Shown here in pieces: positions 9,281 to 35,549 of a stretch of 35,867 nt of DNA. Location of the stretch: positions 1 to 35,867 of the IMG/VR virus record IMGVR_UViG_2563366856_000003. The stretch is one strand, 5' to 3'. Each line of letters begins with the position of its first letter. Position 1 is the first letter of the stretch. The notes beneath the pieces are model-generated. The model was not told the DNA's origin. It saw nothing but the letters and a program-made list of their open reading frames with translations, and searched no databases. Position numbers and translations under genes: made by a program. This DNA is from a virus. Taxonomy: Duplodnaviria > Heunggongvirae > Uroviricota > Caudoviricetes.

Positions 9281-9515
<235 letters not shown>

Positions 9516-9544
<29 letters not shown>

Positions 9545-10649
9545 TTGCCCTTATTATACTATAAAAGGCAATACTATAAAAGGCAACACTAAAAAAGAAA
9601 ACATTTCATCTTCTGCTGTTTTAACAACAGCCCTGCATACTTCTCTTCTAAAAATCACAACGGTAATTAATGAAATTAATTCTATTTATCCCTTTGATGT
9701 CTCAGTTGTTATTCCGGTTCACAACCGAGAAACCCTTATTCTCGAATGCATTAAATCTTTAAACAATCAGACTATAGATAAAAATTGTTTTGAAGTTATT
9801 TTCATTGATGACTGTTCCACTGACAGGAGCATTGCCGCCATTGAATATAACATTTCGAGAGAAATAAATTATCGTATTATCCGTAGAGCAGTTGGTTCAG
9901 GGAATGCATCAGCGCCGCGAAATGAGGGAATAAAATCCGCAAAAGGTCGCTATGTGTTTTTCTTAGACTCTGATGATTCCATTCACTCTGACTTACTGTC
10001 CGATGGTATTCAGATGGCTTATAAAAACAATAGTGACATTGTATATTTCAAGCAGGTTTCCTCTACAGGGAGAGGGGTTCCTGTACGCCCATTTAAGGCA
10101 GACACGAATAAAGCAGATATTATAAAAAACCATCTTTTTAGATCATTAAAAATCTTCAAGTTCTTTAAAAGAGAGTTGCTAATCAATAACAACATCTTAT
10201 TTAACCCATCAATTTCAGTCTATGAGGATATGCTTTTTTCTTGCCAGAGCCTAACTGTAGCTAATACGATATCTATACTGGCAAGAAAGGGCTACTACTC
10301 TCTGAATCGCCATGAAGAACCACATCTATCTAAAACATCTTTCTCCATTAAACAAAGAGCCTTGGTATTACAAACAGGTTTGATTTATATCTTATCAAGC
10401 AATAAAAATGAAGCAGAAATAGTAAAAATGTTTAATGCATGGCTGGTTATTTGCGTTGAGCACTTGGCATCCATATTATCCAAAAAAAGTTTAACAACTA
10501 ATGAGAAGTCTCACGTTTTTAACTTGATACATAAATCACTCTTACCATATACAGGGCTTGTAAATGAGTCCCAAATATATCCCGCACAAAGAGAGCTTGT
10601 CAGTTGCTTAATCTGTGGAGATTATTCTTCTTTTTGCGAAAAAATATAA
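9516..10649 (+). CDS. Family 2 (GT-A fold) glycosyltransferase, probable surface-polysaccharide-modifying lysogenic-conversion gene
   Basis: 377-aa ORF with VVIPVHNRE...IFIDDCSTDRS and DSDD (DXD) motifs typical of GT2; the annotated start is a GTG immediately after the repeat with no usable RBS and there is no in-frame ATG upstream of the domain; AT-rich. Confidence 0.8.
9558..9602. repeat. 15-bp tandem repeat (about 2.5 copies) in the glycosyltransferase 5' region
   Basis: ACTATAAAAGGCAAT / ACTATAAAAGGCAAC / ACTAAAAAAGAAAAC, encoding TIKGN-TIKGN-TKKEN. Confidence 0.8.
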
Positions 10650-15165: not shown

Positions 15166-15513
15166 TCAACTCACAGGGATGGTTAACGAAAGTGGCTGGC
15201 CGGTGTCGTTGTGCTGGCCGGTTAAGGTGACCGTCATTCGCCCGTCAAAACTGCGCTCAGTGGTGACGGATGACAGGGTGACGCGGGGTTCCCATTTCAG
15301 CACCGCCATGTAACAGGCGACCTTAATCTGCAACTCAAGCGCCGGGGTCTGCGGCTGGTCAATCATTGACGCCAGCAACGAGCCGTAATCACGACGCATC
15401 ACCCGCGAGCCGACCGGTGTGCGCAGGATATCGCCGATACTCTGGCTGATATGCTCAAGGTCAGTGACAGTCAGGCCATCACTGCAATTCATTCCGAGAT
15501 AACGCGCTGTCAT
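15166..15513 (-). CDS. W: Baseplate protein W
   Basis: 115-aa ORF matching P2 gpW. Confidence 0.95.
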   Translation of the reverse strand: MTARYLGMNCSDGLTVTDLEHISQSIGDILRTPVGSRVMRRDYGSLLASMIDQPQTPALELQIKVACYMAVLKWEPRVTLSSVTTERSFDGRMTVTLTGQHNDTGQPLSLTIPVS

Positions 15514-16145
15514 AGAGGGCTCCCGGTTGTGCCGCCGCTGTCGCCGGGGTGTTTATGGGTATGCAGTACCTTACCGTTTGATGAGAGTTCACCGCCGGTG
15601 TGTTCAATGTTGCCGCGCATCGTCCCGCCCTTCTGCACTTCCAGCGTGCCGGTAATCAGCCTGTTGGTGCAAACCACCTCCGGTGTGTCCAGGGTGACGC
15701 GGGTTGATGCTTTCACCATGACCACCGGCACCGTGGCAGTAACAGAATCAGAAGCCGTCACGCTGGCCGTTTTAATTCCGCTTACCGTGAGTGCACTGGT
15801 TTCGGGTTCATACTCAATCACCGCCCCGTCAGGGAAACGGATATGCAGGGCATCCGCCGACGCAGACGGCGCGGGGTTATCGCCGGAATAAATCCCCGGC
15901 AGAACGAACGCCGTGTCGAGTTCACCGCCCACAGCCAGAATCAGCACCTGTTCCCCCACGGAAGGTGCCCACCATGTGCGCGAACGTCCGGCACGATGGG
16001 TCAGCCACTGAAGCCAGTCAGTGCACATGCCACCGGTCTGCACACGGCAGCGACCGGCTTTAAGGTTGGTTTCGACGACAAGGCCGGTACGAATCATGTT
16101 GCGCAGTGCGCGCGCGAGTTCCTGAATATTTGCGAGAGTGTTCAT
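15510..16145 (-). CDS. V: Baseplate spike protein V
   Basis: 211-aa product from ATG at 16143-16145 (MNTLANIQELARALRNMIRTG...) matching P2 gpV; the ORF-track start 16163 is probably too long. Confidence 0.9.
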   Translation of the reverse strand: MNTLANIQELARALRNMIRTGLVVETNLKAGRCRVQTGGMCTDWLQWLTHRAGRSRTWWAPSVGEQVLILAVGGELDTAFVLPGIYSGDNPAPSASADALHIRFPDGAVIEYEPETSALTVSGIKTASVTASDSVTATVPVVMVKASTRVTLDTPEVVCTNRLITGTLEVQKGGTMRGNIEHTGGELSSNGKVLHTHKHPGDSGGTTGSPL

Positions 16146-16228
16146 GCGTGTGAGATTGCACAATATATAAAAGTTATGCTATCTGGATTCATTTGTAGAA
16201 CGACCATACAACATTCGAGGAGAGCGTA

Positions 16229-17014
16229 ATGTTCAGTGATAATGTGACTAATGCGTGGTGGTTTATCTCTTTGTATCTATTTTTATTAATAGCATTAACA
16301 TTTATTACCTTTGGTAAAAGTAATCTTATGAGGTTTATTGCACATCATTTCAATTTTGAGTATTCAGACAGAAAGTTAAAAATGCTCGACAAAAAATGGC
16401 GCGACATTCAACTATTTAAAATAATTAACGGAATCAATGTATCAGGCATCGAAGATGTGAGAATGATACAGCAGGGGCTGATTGATGGAAAACTAAAAAC
16501 ATCGTATTTTTTTCTTACTCGCTTCTGGGGTGACATAACAAAACCACCACACATAATTAAAACAATAATTGTAATTCTGTCCAGCATTATTTATATTCTC
16601 TTCGCATGTTATATACACAACAAACAATCCGCTATAGTAAGAGATGCCATAGGCATACCATATAAAAATATGATGTACTATGTTTATAGTGACAAAGTTC
16701 TTTTATCCTTCAACAATAAAACAGTTGAATTCAATAAAACTTATAGCCTTGCCGATTGCAAGAGGCTACGAAACATATTTATAAAAGACACACTTCCTGA
16801 GATCGCCTGCAATAAGCTCTTACAGCTAAACGAGGAGGACTCGGAATGGTTAAGTCAGGAGATTAAAGATAATAACAGCCAAAAAAAAGCATTATTAATA
16901 ATATCCCTCATCTATTTCATTTCAGGTCTGGTTATATTCCTGTCATATACAAAATTCCTTTACGCCAATAAGAAGGTTGTAGAATACAAAGCATCAAATA
17001 AAAATCACTCATAA
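16229..17014 (+). CDS. Hypothetical membrane protein (three predicted TM helices), AT-rich moron opposite to the late genes
   Basis: 261-aa ORF with strong GGAGAG Shine-Dalgarno; hydrophobic segments at N-terminus, middle and C-terminus; lysine/asparagine-rich; occupies the P2 orf30 position between V and S. Confidence 0.7.
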   Translation: MFSDNVTNAWWFISLYLFLLIALTFITFGKSNLMRFIAHHFNFEYSDRKLKMLDKKWRDIQLFKIINGINVSGIEDVRMIQQGLIDGKLKTSYFFLTRFWGDITKPPHIIKTIIVILSSIIYILFACYIHNKQSAIVRDAIGIPYKNMMYYVYSDKVLLSFNNKTVEFNKTYSLADCKRLRNIFIKDTLPEIACNKLLQLNEEDSEWLSQEIKDNNSQKKALLIISLIYFISGLVIFLSYTKFLYANKKVVEYKASNKNHS

Positions 17015-17019
17015 GCCTC

Positions 17020-17056
17020 TAAACATTGAGCGACCAGCATGGCCGCTCAATGTTTA
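17020..17056. other. 13-bp perfect inverted repeat between the convergent moron and S genes
   Basis: TAAACATTGAGCG ... CGCTCAATGTTTA with 11-nt loop; no flanking U-run. Confidence 0.6.
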
Positions 17057-17085
17057 ATTGCGCATCAGCCTCTGCCTGGATAAAA

Positions 17086-17538
17086 CTAACGCTCAAGGTG
17101 AGCCAGGATAATCTCTTCAATCATCTGCACATCCTCACCGGTAAAGCCGAGCAGAGGACGCGCCGGATAATCAATTTTCTTACCGTCTTTCCGGGTTTCT
17201 TCCGACAGACCGAACTGATGCACACTGGCGATTTTCGGCGACTTCCCGCCGTAAAATTCCATTGATGCCTGTTCCGGGCTGGCGCGGATATGCAAAAAAC
17301 GACTGGTAATAAGTTTCGCAAACATTTTTCGCTTAACGCGACCGGTCTTTTTTCTGGCGCTCTGCTGCTGACGTGGCGCGTAGGGGGTGCCGTCCGGGGC
17401 TTTCTGTGCCATCACCCGACGCTGCTGACTCTGACGCAGACGTTTCGCCAGTTCGGCGCTCAGTCGCCGACGCCCTGACGGTGACAGCGATTCAATCAGC
17501 CCGGTCAGCCGGTCTTCAAAACGCTTAAACTCATTCAT
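17086..17538 (-). CDS. S: Tail completion protein S
   Basis: 150-aa ORF matching P2 gpS. Confidence 0.95.
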   Translation of the reverse strand: MNEFKRFEDRLTGLIESLSPSGRRRLSAELAKRLRQSQQRRVMAQKAPDGTPYAPRQQQSARKKTGRVKRKMFAKLITSRFLHIRASPEQASMEFYGGKSPKIASVHQFGLSEETRKDGKKIDYPARPLLGFTGEDVQMIEEIILAHLER

Positions 17539-26595: not shown

Positions 26596-27948
26596 TCAAC
26601 CCTCTGCCGAAATATTTCTTTGGAGAAATGCTCTAATTTTTTGCCTGAAAGCCTCACATTCATCAGGCTTTAACCTCTCAAGGTATTCAAAAACCCTAGT
26701 TTCATCCCAGCCGTTGTTATAGGTTTTCACTACCCCTCGATAAACTTGCTTATCAAGTTTATCGTTACCTCTAGTTGTAACTCTCGGGATCGATTCATCT
26801 TGGCCGTATGCTTGATAGAAATCCTTCTCAACGCTTTGGAAAGGTATGCATAAAATATTTTCACCTCGAGCATGCCTTTGACCTAATTGATCTCCGTCTA
26901 ACACTGAGATCACATTCTGTTGAGTCGTGAGAAAGCTCTCTCTCTCATTACGACGCATTAAATCAATGACATTAGTTCCTCCACCAACATATATTATTTT
27001 ATATTCGTAGAAGTAATCATTCCCAGGAGCATTAATTATATATTCTAAGAAATTTTGCAGAACTTCATCTTCAGTAAGAATGTACTTATCCCATCCTTTA
27101 AATCCAAAAAGCGTACTTTTTATATAATTATATGATCGATTTGTAATTGTAGTTCCAGCATCACCTTCGCACATATAGTACAATTCATCATCATTCAGCG
27201 TTTGCATTAAAGCAAGTGAATGTGTTGTGAATACAATATTCACCGAGTGTCTCTGACAATATTTCCTTAGCACTGCTATAAGATGGACTTGCGCCGAAGA
27301 GTCTAGTGATATATCTATCTCATCTATGACAATGAATTTTCTTTTGAGCTCAATCATTCTAAATAAATTCAAAATAAAATACTCACCCGAGCTAAAGTAA
27401 TCCTCCCTTATGTATGTTCCGTTCTCATTCAATCTGAAATAGAAAATTTCATTTTTTACAGAAAATGCTTTAAGATTATTGTAAGAAGAAGACTGATATA
27501 CCTCATTGAGTATATTTATCAAATCCTCGGGAACGCTATAGCTTTCAAACGCAATACTTTTTCTAAGTTCAGTATCAATTTTACTAAGTGTTGGGAAGTT
27601 ATTGAACCTCATTCCATGAGGAATGGGCAACTCGACATAAAGATTGGATTTTATATCTGCTGGAATTATTTGCTTAGTATCTATTACCTTCAAATTCTCA
27701 TCATAGACATATACTATATCTTGATCATTAATATTATATACTATACTACTGTCAGGATTGAATATATATCTAGAAGATGTCTTTATGAATGTATCTGCTG
27801 ATTGTAAATTTTTAATTGCTTTGATTAGCGTTGTCTTTCCAGCACCGTTCTTTCCTACAATGCAAGTCAGTTTATTTTCAGAAAGATCAATAGCAAATGA
27901 CATATGTTCAACATGCTGGATTTTCGAGATCTCAATGTTTATTTTCAT
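26596..27948 (-). CDS. OLD-like ABC-type ATPase with C-terminal Toprim-like region (candidate effector of RT-associated defence system)
   Basis: 450-aa ORF: Walker A GKNGAGKTT, signature-like SSGEYF, Walker B FIVIDEID, H-loop TTHS, then TEDE ... VLDGDQ resembling Toprim Glu and DxD; ATG one base after the RT stop; AT-rich. Confidence 0.8.
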   Translation of the reverse strand: MKINIEISKIQHVEHMSFAIDLSENKLTCIVGKNGAGKTTLIKAIKNLQSADTFIKTSSRYIFNPDSSIVYNINDQDIVYVYDENLKVIDTKQIIPADIKSNLYVELPIPHGMRFNNFPTLSKIDTELRKSIAFESYSVPEDLINILNEVYQSSSYNNLKAFSVKNEIFYFRLNENGTYIREDYFSSGEYFILNLFRMIELKRKFIVIDEIDISLDSSAQVHLIAVLRKYCQRHSVNIVFTTHSLALMQTLNDDELYYMCEGDAGTTITNRSYNYIKSTLFGFKGWDKYILTEDEVLQNFLEYIINAPGNDYFYEYKIIYVGGGTNVIDLMRRNERESFLTTQQNVISVLDGDQLGQRHARGENILCIPFQSVEKDFYQAYGQDESIPRVTTRGNDKLDKQVYRGVVKTYNNGWDETRVFEYLERLKPDECEAFRQKIRAFLQRNISAEG

Positions 27949-27949
27949 T

Positions 27950-28939
27950 TTAATTTACATTCTTGTAAAAAAGCATATCGACAATCGTATTTCCGTATTT
28001 TCTCTTTAGCTTATCGAGATAACTCTTATCAATTGTGTTTATATGATTCAAAAGACCAGAAACTGTATTAATGCCCTTTTCCAAGATCTCACTATCATTC
28101 AATCCGCTAGTTTTAACCTTAGGATCTTTTATTATAGAATCTATAAATTTATCTTTATCCGTTACATAAAAATGAATCAAATGCTCAAGCTTTCTTTTTA
28201 TTTTAATATCAACAGAGACTATCTGAGACGGTAAAATAACCATCCCCAGCAGCTTAATCTTACTGCCTTTTTTAATCAATTTAGTTTTTGCTGAGTTTAG
28301 TTTGAAATGTCCCTTCCCAAACTCACCCAGCAGGTCACTTACTACAGAATGAATATTCTCAAAGCCCTCATCATTTTCAGAGGAAATAATAATATCATCT
28401 GAATAGCGTGTGAATATATATTCATGGTTAATACAATATTGCTGCATCTCAACATCAAAGTCATATAAACATGCATTGCTGAAAGCTGGTGATGTCGGGA
28501 ACCCTACAGGCAACGAATTATCGATAATAATATAATCTAAAATTTTATCCAAGTGTATATTTAAATCGGAAATGGGAACGTTCGATAAGTTATCAACTAA
28601 AACTGATCGTGCATATTCACGAGTTATCGATGGGAAAAAGCTTTTAATATCAGTATTGAAGAATATCTTACTACAGGCGTGAAGTTTTACTGCATCATAA
28701 GTGCTGCTTCCTTTTCTATACGAAAACACAACATCCTTATTTACTTTCAAGTATGAAAGAACAAATTCATTTATGAATTTGTGATACTCTTTTAGTTTAG
28801 AAGTGGGCTCAGCAATTAACCTTTCATCAAAGGTTATAAATTTAGTTTGTTGAAATGGTTCAAACGAAAGAAAGTTTTGAAAGGAATCTTTTTCGAAGAA
28901 TGCAATATTGAAGGCTTTTTCGAGACTAAGGGGTTTCAT
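27950..28939 (-). CDS. Reverse transcriptase, retron-type size
   Basis: 329-aa ORF with RT motifs NTDIKSFFPSI (motif A-like), LPVGFPTSPAFSNACL (motif B'), YSDD (YxDD catalytic motif C); AT-rich; sits at the P2 old/tin position. Confidence 0.85.
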   Translation of the reverse strand: MKPLSLEKAFNIAFFEKDSFQNFLSFEPFQQTKFITFDERLIAEPTSKLKEYHKFINEFVLSYLKVNKDVVFSYRKGSSTYDAVKLHACSKIFFNTDIKSFFPSITREYARSVLVDNLSNVPISDLNIHLDKILDYIIIDNSLPVGFPTSPAFSNACLYDFDVEMQQYCINHEYIFTRYSDDIIISSENDEGFENIHSVVSDLLGEFGKGHFKLNSAKTKLIKKGSKIKLLGMVILPSQIVSVDIKIKRKLEHLIHFYVTDKDKFIDSIIKDPKVKTSGLNDSEILEKGINTVSGLLNHINTIDKSYLDKLKRKYGNTIVDMLFYKNVN

Positions 28940-35115: not shown

Positions 35116-35195
35116 CGTTTAAGGGCTTTCAGTGGTAATTTATGCCGCTCAAACCCGCATTGTACCGTTGAAAGCCCCTACTGGTGACACCCTAA

Positions 35196-35222
35196 ATCTC
35201 CCTTACACAGGCTTATTTTTTA
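35196..35222. other. attR: Prophage attR core (27-bp direct repeat of attL)
   Basis: AATCTCCCTTACACAGGCTTATTTTTT, one mismatch to 1508-1534; about 80 bp downstream of the int stop. Confidence 0.7.
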
Positions 35223-35549
35223 TGCATAAGCCCTATCCCTGGTCACCGTCTTCCATTGACCACATCGATAGAATCTCCCTTAATAGCACGATGCCTTTCA
35301 CTTATCGACATCGTGCTCGCACAGGTTCCGGTTACGCACAGCCAGAACGCGCATGTTTGACGCTTACCAAAAAATAAACCTAAAGCATTGGAATATTTTT
35401 GACATCATTTTCTGATGGCTGCATAAAATAAAAATTCTGCTTTAGTTTCATCTATCTGTTTGTCATTATTACTCACATTCAATAATGGTGTTGAAGAATA
35501 TCCCATCACAGATAAAATAAATATGTGCATGGTAGTCTTGAATCTATTC

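Follow-up and report, generated by a model that had tools for sequence, protein, structure and literature searches.

The orf30 gene of a P2-like prophage: a mobile AT-rich cassette encoding a putative inner-membrane protein with a possible role in exclusion

The 35,867-nt stretch of DNA analysed here (the window throughout; IMG/VR virus record IMGVR_UViG_2563366856_000003, positions 1 to 35,867, Caudoviricetes) holds a P2-like prophage in which a single AT-rich gene, almost certainly the orthologue of orf30 of bacteriophage P2 judging from its sequence and surroundings, separates the late genes V and S and runs in the opposite direction to them. The gene (16229..17014 including the stop codon, + strand, ATG start in the list of open reading frames, ORFs) encodes a 261-aa protein predicted to reside in the inner membrane. 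It is preceded by the Shine-Dalgarno sequence GAGGAGAG (16217-16224, + strand, as read from the sequence), which ends 4 nt ahead of the ATG, leaves 6 nt between its GGAG core and the start codon, and keeps its position in P2 and in a related metagenome contig (L018). To the left lies gene V, which codes for the baseplate spike (15510..16145, - strand) and is transcribed away from orf30; it was assigned by transfer of the P2 annotation and by matches of homologues in related loci to the Pfam families Phage_base_V/Phage_spike. The tail completion gene S (17086..17538, - strand; ORF list and P2 annotation) flanks orf30 on the right and is convergent with it.

Organization and mobility of the S-V junction

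The window protein matches the phrog_2407 profile over its entire length (E 1.8e-143, positions 1-261 of 261), is 84% identical (aa) to Orf30 of P2 and 99.6% identical to its counterpart in Peduovirus P24A7b, and lies within a 1-kb region sharing 92.4% and 99.8% nucleotide identity with these two phages, respectively. Both the full-length match and the synteny, that is, location in the V-S gap on the opposite strand, place the gene in the P2 orf30 group and phrog_2407. Likeness to P2 extends to the 786-bp length of the gene, an 83-bp spacer carrying the activator site of the V promoter (pV) and a terminator hairpin. A preliminary description of this DNA had reported a 261-aa ORF with a strong Shine-Dalgarno sequence and a composition unlike the P2 backbone, and all three observations hold; it recognised no known family, but the protein does have one in phrog_2407, and the gene is annotated in the P2 record (AF063097, 9439-10224) under the label 'Orf30, nonessential'. 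What had been observed is therefore real and correctly described, and is a gene already known from a model phage. The G+C content of the ORF is 0.32 (0.35 at third codon positions), as against 0.57-0.60 in the flanking 400-nt windows and 0.50 in the window as a whole. At this base composition an open frame of 261 codons would arise by chance with a probability of about 8e-10, and eight P2-type phages all have a frame of exactly 786 bp. Close copies of the window allele are present in 460 of 5426 complete E. coli genomes (~8%), including the B strains (REL606 and its relatives).

Comparison with close relatives lacking orf30 delimits the unit that has been exchanged. The S-V gap measures only 66 bp in phages Wphi, fiAA91-ss, pro147, P22H4 and P22H1. 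In an ungapped comparison, identity to Wphi ends exactly at the ATG of V (16145/16146) and returns at about 17083, 3 nt before the stop codon of S, so that the swapped unit is a 937-bp cassette (16146..17082) comprising the V promoter region, orf30 and the hairpin. The cassette thus brings the window phage's own version of the V promoter region, which replaces the 66-bp intergenic spacer. How frequent such exchanges are was assessed by querying E. coli genomes with 1 kb of each flank. Both flanks were found in 1445 genomes, and in a spread sample of 60 of these junctions about 31% carried a 940-bp gap with orf30, about 60% were empty (66/72-bp) and about 9% held other cargo; the share with orf30 agrees with the ratio of 460 to 1445. 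By the definition of a moron in the sense of Juhala and Hendrix, as summarised in PMC3594210, such an element is present in some phages and cleanly absent from close relatives, deviates in base composition, has its own terminator and has a promoter that is active in the repressed prophage. The first two properties are evident here and the third would be supplied by the hairpin; as for the fourth, no convincing sigma-70 match was detected on the + strand ahead of the gene. The earlier reading of the gene as a moron is well supported by the empty 66-bp relatives, the exact breakpoints, the AT-richness, the terminal hairpin and the many empty junctions. The position of orf30 has also been listed among three regions of P2-like phages that carry foreign genes (PMC3091744; also PMC6823313, PMC13366799). 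In summary, orf30 is a non-essential, horizontally mobile, AT-rich single-gene cassette that occupies the gap separating two late operons, and the P2-like prophage carrying it is integrated at cyaR.

Other E. coli P2-like prophages hold different cargo at the same junction, namely unrelated AT-rich single genes of 32-36% GC (L032 1084-1827; L033 1111-2154; L034 1078-1818; L007 2624-3364). One type encodes a soluble orphan of 247 aa, another a 347-aa protein whose C-terminal part bears two membrane helices, and a third a 246-aa HNH-like protein also found in phage R18C; none of these alternative cargoes matches a known defence family. The ORFs at the S-V site of R18C, L032 and L033, together with an additional ORF of an Enterobacter locus (L002), were considered as possible relatives of orf30 and rejected with a hidden Markov model (HMM) of the family. 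In several loci further genes join the orf30-like gene: a 445-aa DUF4062 protein in Gibbsiella (L021 4377-5714), an ORF6N protein with a weak match to PADLOC PDC-S05 in Pectobacterium (L016 4300-4932), a 273-aa orphan in Enterobacter (L002 6945-7766), and two small + strand genes, one of them encoding a DUF7480 protein, in Cronobacter (L030 2965-3899). These extra genes mostly stand on the S side (ORF6N, DUF4062 and the 273-aa orphan).

The short region upstream of orf30 is shared with the late promoter of V. The P2 record annotates a feature at 10239-10266 ('activation of pV promoter'), and an alignment of 161 nt that is 97% identical transfers this binding site of the Ogr activator to 16187..16214 (- strand) of the window, where it ends 15 nt ahead of the orf30 ATG. 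The preliminary description had placed the start of the ORF 83 bp from that of V and its 5' end in the region of the V late promoter; both statements are borne out, the distance being obtained with the V start codon at 16143-16145. The mechanical ORF list starts V at a TTG (16163), whereas the P2 annotation and the breakpoint of homology with Wphi both point to the ATG. A further peculiarity of the P2 record is that it places the transcription start of the V operon on the same base as the V ATG, such that the V mRNA would be leaderless. The ACAAC half-site of the activator site is present in all related loci. In the four loci with a P2-type spacer (window, P2, L018 and L002) the spacer measures 82-83 bp even though the proteins are 32-38% identical, and the ACAAC(A)T activator half lies 3-5 nt ahead of the ribosome-binding site. 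Because of this spacing, any orf30 mRNA must start within the V promoter region and cross the activator site. Late promoters of P2 require Ogr at about position -55, which is consistent with the V transcription start given in the P2 record. From this geometry and the shared region, transcription of orf30 and of V would be expected to interfere, with orf30 being made when the late promoter is off.

At the other end of the cassette, a hairpin (17020..17056) was located by inverted-repeat search, folding and P2 annotation between the convergent orf30 and S genes, 6 nt past the orf30 stop codon. It contains the 13-bp perfect inverted repeat that had been noticed after the ORF (17020-17032 / 17044-17056), which extends to 17-nt arms with one mismatch (94% complementary) and a 3-nt loop. 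Folding energies are -23.3 kcal/mol on the + strand (z -4.8 relative to shuffles) and -29.0 kcal/mol on the - strand (z -5.7). The P2 record describes the same hairpin as 'putative rho-independent terminator for O operon', the late operon that ends in S on the other strand. On both strands the stem is closed by A/T-rich pairs, with AAACAUU and AAUGUUU included in the 17-nt arms, and a clean U-tract after the stem is absent from both strands. The hairpin probably terminates the orf30 and S transcripts in both directions. A scan of the hairpin against Rfam gave only spurious microRNA-like matches.

Family, predicted topology and selection

The family to which Orf30 belongs is small and confined to Enterobacterales. 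A word-indexed search of 5.8 billion clusters returned only five clusters of relatives, and an exhaustive HMMER search of 1.84 billion representatives yielded 41 proteins at E ≤ 0.001, about 25 of which are full length (250-271 aa) and share 17-33% identity. Named members come from Escherichia, Enterobacter, Yersinia, Pectobacterium, Cronobacter, Serratia, Sodalis, Rahnella and Gibbsiella. An alignment of 26 family sequences (A3) displays a single architecture throughout, with residues G68, D76, G87, C194 and I212 invariant and Q61 (92%), C177 (88%), N247 and K254 nearly so.

The family can be regarded as a distant branch of the uncharacterised Pfam family PF19723 (DUF6216), whose profile gives weak matches in 10 of the 26 members. 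A Sodalis protein encoded at the S/V site (P0028) passes its gathering threshold (28.9 versus 27.3 bits), residues 10-255 being colinear with positions 10-265 of the 270-position profile. The window protein itself gives no match to this model at that threshold, and is thus a remote relative of DUF6216 rather than a member by the Pfam criterion. As the function of DUF6216 is not known, the link provides the orf30 family with a name but no mechanism. When the window protein was compared with the Pfam, NCBIfam and PADLOC libraries, only sub-threshold noise came back (an antiporter subunit, and DUF6535 with 19.8 bits where the cutoff is 23.9); searching the sequences of the PDB with a profile found nothing, and a Foldseek comparison of the model with the PDB and viral models gave nothing significant. 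Neither a characterised homologue nor a significant fold match emerged from these searches. Other candidate identities were tried and rejected. The Rahnella ecdela member found at the S/V site (P0090; L029 4001-4768) bears the UniRef name 'SMODS and SLOG-associating 2TM effector domain-containing protein', yet the SLATT identity goes no further than this name, as no SLATT profile (Pfam SLATT_1-6, NCBIfam, or the PADLOC effectors of CBASS, cyclic-oligonucleotide-based anti-phage signalling systems) matches any member at E ≤ 1. Kinship with CorA/ZntB/Mrs2 was likewise dismissed: the GMN motif is missing, and the alpha/beta domain is predicted to be periplasmic, not cytoplasmic.

Hydropathy (Kyte-Doolittle, 19-residue window) and an AlphaFold2 model built with alignment A3 (predicted local distance difference test 83.8, predicted template modelling score 0.74, i.e. 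confident) agree in making Orf30 almost certainly an integral inner-membrane protein with three helices. The first transmembrane helix (TM1; aa 9-29; 16253..16315, + strand; hydropathy peak 2.14) falls in a modelled helix spanning residues 4-40, the second (TM2; aa 108-130; 16550..16618, + strand; peak 2.49) in a helix at 109-134, and the third (TM3; aa 220-241; 16886..16951, + strand; peak 2.58) in a long helix at 202-260, and is followed by a basic C-tail that includes the conserved N247 and K254. Loop 1, between TM1 and TM2, is modelled with three short helices (48-94) and harbours the most conserved segment in alignment A3, predicted to be cytoplasmic and helical (aa 58-104; 16400..16540, + strand), whose motif reads D59-x-Q61-L-F-(K/R)-x-x-N-G68-I-N-V ... 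D76 ... G87 ... F94. Loop 2 is modelled as a four-stranded sheet (141-173) and two helices (174-198), and corresponds to a predicted periplasmic alpha/beta domain (aa 131-219) containing Cys177 and Cys194 (codons 16757-16759 and 16808-16810, within 16757..16810, + strand), which were singled out from the cysteine counts of the family.

The orientation of the protein may be deduced from the distribution of charges and cysteines across the 26 members. No member has a Lys or Arg in its N-terminus; loop 1, 78 residues long in nearly all of them, is net positive in 26/26 (on average 12.5 K/R versus 7.8 D/E, net +4.8); loop 2 (~89 residues) is about neutral and contains exactly two Cys in 26/26, the mean for loop 1 being 0.3; and the C-tail is basic throughout. 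Paired cysteines are typical of periplasmic domains. Together with the positive-inside rule, these features predict an N-out topology in which loop 1 and the C-tail are cytoplasmic and loop 2 is periplasmic; Cys177 and Cys194 would probably form a disulphide. The three transmembrane helices and Lys/Asn-rich character attributed to the protein beforehand are thus recovered, with three hydropathy segments and a content of 10.0% Lys and 7.3% Asn, and the topology prediction that had been called for gives three helices and an N-out/C-in arrangement across the 26 members.

The position of the gene is stable compared with its sequence. In 11 of the 14 lineages whose genomic context was inspected, the orf30-like gene belongs to a P2-like prophage, in which it separates V from S and is oriented against both; these are the window, P2, a metagenome-assembled genome of Enterobacter (L002), E. 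coli L005, Yersinia L013-15, Pectobacterium L016, the metagenome contig L018, Sodalis L020, Gibbsiella L021, Rahnella L029 and Cronobacter L030. When nine P2-like prophages of different genera are compared pairwise, the orf30-like protein has a median identity of only 28%, whereas J reaches 74%, V 66.5% and S 58%. The same tendency is seen at shorter distances: in the eight P2-type phages the nonsynonymous divergence (dN) of orf30 is 0.03-0.12 and its ratio to the synonymous divergence (dN/dS) is 0.33-0.54, versus dN ≤ 0.018 and dN/dS of 0.0-0.21 for the neighbouring W, V, S and R.

Within the protein, variation is unevenly distributed. Mean pairwise BLOSUM scores are highest in loop 1 (1.9 for aa 58-95) and low in the membrane helices (0.05-0.85, with 0.05 in TM2 and 0.23 in TM3), and the differences between the window and P2 alleles fall mostly in the helices. 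In comparisons of close alleles, the membrane helices have a ratio of nonsynonymous to synonymous polymorphism (pN/pS) of 0.89-1.08 and the loops one of 0.26-0.34, a contrast that is suggestive but inconclusive (Fisher p 0.025-0.096 per pair). These values suggest that the loops are under purifying selection and the membrane helices close to neutral drift. Since both conservation and low pN/pS concentrate in the loops, the soluble domains would carry the function of the protein, with the helices acting as anchors.

Members of the family also occur away from phages. A locus scan based on a 6-sequence alignment found 3 Enterobacter loci; on two Enterobacter chromosomes a lone member occupies an islet of 33-35% GC between an extracytoplasmic-function (ECF) sigma-factor operon and a chemoreceptor gene, and a Serratia copy lies near an integrase. 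A divergent member from E. cloacae (P0039, ~20-26% identical; L012 6769-7765, JAWNFA010000013.1) lies in the interval from yegQ to yegS, some 150 bp past cyaR, and is not accompanied by any other phage gene; the yegQ-cyaR-yegS copy was seen on more than 200 E. cloacae contigs. The window begins with the same genes, yegQ (1-1362; 92% aa identity to the peptidase U32 gene of E. cloacae) and the small RNA gene cyaR (1445-1530, 100.7 bits), and a 35-nt repeat of the cyaR 3' end (1507-1541 / 35195-35229, 91% identical) bounds a prophage of about 33.7 kb integrated at cyaR. With yegQ-cyaR and these repeat bounds in the window, the E. cloacae copy is seen to occupy the attachment site of the window prophage. 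The simplest reading would make it a domesticated remnant, the only gene left of a P2-like prophage that has decayed, although no att-like direct repeats were found around it.

Proposed function and rival explanations

The preliminary description had suggested lysogenic conversion, superinfection exclusion or abortive infection, which the data neither establish nor contradict. The stand-alone copies, the purifying selection on the loops and the fast diversification at a fixed locus favour a self-sufficient function that benefits the host. Among the behaviours that could provide such a benefit, exclusion of other phages fits best, because the gene persists outside phages, is dispensable, runs antisense to the late operons, encodes domains on both faces of the membrane and diversifies faster than its neighbours at a locus that is kept, and because of the cargo of the other AT-rich islands. 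Indeed, the two other islands of this prophage carry defence or conversion cargo (a type I-B retron and a glycosyltransferase), which we count in favour of exclusion. We therefore tentatively propose, as a possibility that falls short of a probable one, that Orf30 is an inner-membrane exclusion protein expressed by the prophage and protecting the lysogen at the envelope. Orf30 would be synthesised in lysogens, at times when the late promoter of V is off, and would act alone at the inner membrane, blocking the passage of an incoming phage genome across the envelope; the work would be done by the soluble domains, anchored by the helices, and an arms race with the excluded phages would explain why the protein diversifies rapidly while its locus stays fixed.

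Two characterised proteins provide the models for such activity. SieA of phage P22 is a 162-aa inner-membrane protein with three transmembrane helices that acts alone and for which exclusion has been demonstrated; its gene lies on the opposite strand beside the ejection gene 16, and its types, less than 30% identical, keep the topology and a conserved cytoplasmic motif (PMC10883804). Like SieA, Orf30 is a prophage-encoded inner-membrane protein with three helices; its gene, too, neighbours a late virion gene and runs on the other strand, and its sequences fall into divergent types. The two nevertheless differ in that SieA is shorter and is devoid of a large periplasmic domain, and exclusion is a demonstrated property of SieA to which orf30 is likened by its features only. 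The second model is gp15 of HK97 (YebO-like), an inner-membrane moron of the tail operon; it prevents genome entry, and homologues of it exist outside prophages in Enterobacteriaceae (PMC3594210). Both gp15 and orf30 are inner-membrane morons in tail clusters with homologues outside phages, although gp15 is small and the comparison is one of descriptions only.

Several observations weigh against exclusion. Expression in the lysogen is an assumption, and a search of the + strand ahead of orf30 revealed no convincing sigma-70-type promoter (best score 8/13); our own scan of 14 loci likewise gave only weak promoter candidates, none of them conserved among the four loci with the 82-83-bp spacer. 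A gene of 32% GC is moreover a likely target of H-NS silencing. Homology to SieA is not supported (hhalign probability 0.2%), and the SieA motif FxRYPxEAxxFNK is missing from Orf30. PADLOC-DB v2 contains no family matching the window protein, and only three isolated weak matches were obtained among the 26 members (best E 0.0067). Orf30 has been listed as of 'unknown' function (PMC3091744); our literature search found no functional study of orf30, and recent papers on defence hotspots cover tin/old, Z/fun and a site near the repressor but not the S-V locus. The majority of the sampled E. coli junctions do without the gene, which is hence dispensable. Lastly, the position beside V may merely reflect the fact that operon boundaries are among the few places where insertions are tolerated.

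The same data bear on other explanations. Orf30 could be a lysogenic-conversion membrane protein that is not directed against genome entry but confers immunity to a bacteriocin or tailocin, or modulates the envelope or transport. Stable maintenance of the stand-alone chromosomal copies, including the E. cloacae cluster, would suit such a role, as would the glycosyltransferase in the Z/fun island of the same prophage, which modifies the surface. So would the fact that the membrane helices evolve fastest (pN/pS ~1), a pattern seen where specificity lies in the membrane, for example in immunity proteins to pore-forming colicins. One family member does match the colicin-K immunity family weakly (E 0.11), but this is a noise-level match in 1 of 26 members; furthermore, Orf30, whose two soluble domains are sizeable and conserved, is 2-3 times the size of known immunity proteins, and a partner toxin gene adjoins it in none of the loci examined. 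On balance we consider conversion of this kind unlikely. Quite unlikely, in our estimation, is a single-gene abortive-infection effector in the form of an oligomeric, sensor-triggered, SLATT-like or CorA-like membrane pore that depolarises the cell upon infection. The SLATT name carried by the Rahnella protein points in this direction, and in the model TM3 appears to continue a long helix out of the alpha/beta domain in the fashion of CorA. However, the SLATT models of Pfam, NCBIfam and PADLOC match none of the members tested, the GMN motif is lacking and the CorA-like domain would be on the periplasmic rather than the cytoplasmic side; the membrane helices are the least conserved part of the protein and drift near neutrality, which would not be expected of a pore lining.

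A function in the lytic cycle has also to be weighed, in which Orf30 would be an accessory co-expressed with the late genes and involved in lysis timing, in blocking re-adsorption of progeny or in tail or baseplate assembly at the membrane. The gene almost always adjoins the spike gene V, with which it shares a promoter region (the 82-83-bp spacer being retained in four loci), and it stands just downstream of the lysis genes and of R and S. Yet all late operons run on the other strand, and, given the -55 geometry, an activator site centred about 25 bp before the ATG cannot serve a promoter from which the full ORF would be transcribed. Moreover, the gene is nonessential in P2, is absent from about 60% of close relatives, which are viable phages, and persists in phage-free chromosomes, making a lytic role very unlikely. 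Finally, the absence of a detectable promoter and of a known domain, together with dispensability, would be compatible with a non-functional or purely selfish AT-rich insert whose ORF yields no useful protein. This is highly improbable, since an open frame of this length is not expected by chance, is invariant in the eight phages and is headed by a strong Shine-Dalgarno sequence; the loops are under purifying selection and the AlphaFold2 model is confident; and relatives that are 17-40% identical, from at least 8 genera, share the three-helix topology, the motif and the cysteine pair.

A broader proposition could be entertained, which we regard as doubtful at present: the orf30/DUF6216-like proteins may constitute a new class of single-protein inner-membrane modules, genetically coupled to V throughout the P2-like phages of Enterobacterales. 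The fast-evolving, disulphide-bonded periplasmic domain would then sense the incoming tail tip or DNA-conduit proteins and the conserved cytoplasmic domain would execute the block or signal, while the S-V gap would be an overlooked third anti-phage hotspot and the chromosomal copies domesticated survivors. New at the level of the family are the remote link to DUF6216, the conservation of position across genera, the topology and invariant residues, the pattern of selection, and the stand-alone copy at the P2 attachment site. As orf30 is one of the few P2 genes without a function, a family with kept position, topology and invariant residues makes the question testable. If orf30 is an exclusion or defence gene, it would define a third defence locus of P2-like phages and a new mechanism at the level of the membrane; if it is not, the first function that one would guess for such a widespread prophage gene would be ruled out.

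Other variable islands of the prophage

Many recognised defence systems have been located in two hotspots of P2-like phages, tin/old and Z/fun (PMC9122126). The S-V site is akin to these hotspots in accommodating AT-rich, swappable cargo at an operon boundary, with alternative single-gene cassettes, and differs from them in that no cargo found there matches a known defence family and that one protein family dominates. Both hotspots are occupied in the window. The AT-rich island at the tin/old position (26596-28939, - strand) is a type I-B retron, of which 27950-28939 corresponds to PADLOC RT_I-B (E 7.6e-110) and 26596-27948 to ATPase-Toprim_I-B (E 2.2e-178); no msr/msd RNA was detected at the Rfam gathering score. 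The island at the Z/fun position, also AT-rich, encodes a 377-aa family-2 glycosyltransferase (9516-10649, + strand, GTG start; Pfam PF00535, E 1.7e-28). A perfect (CAGC)x19.8 repeat (9435-9513) ends 2 nt before this GTG, and looks like a slipped-strand phase-variation switch acting on a surface-modifying conversion gene, an arrangement that would be unusual for E. coli.

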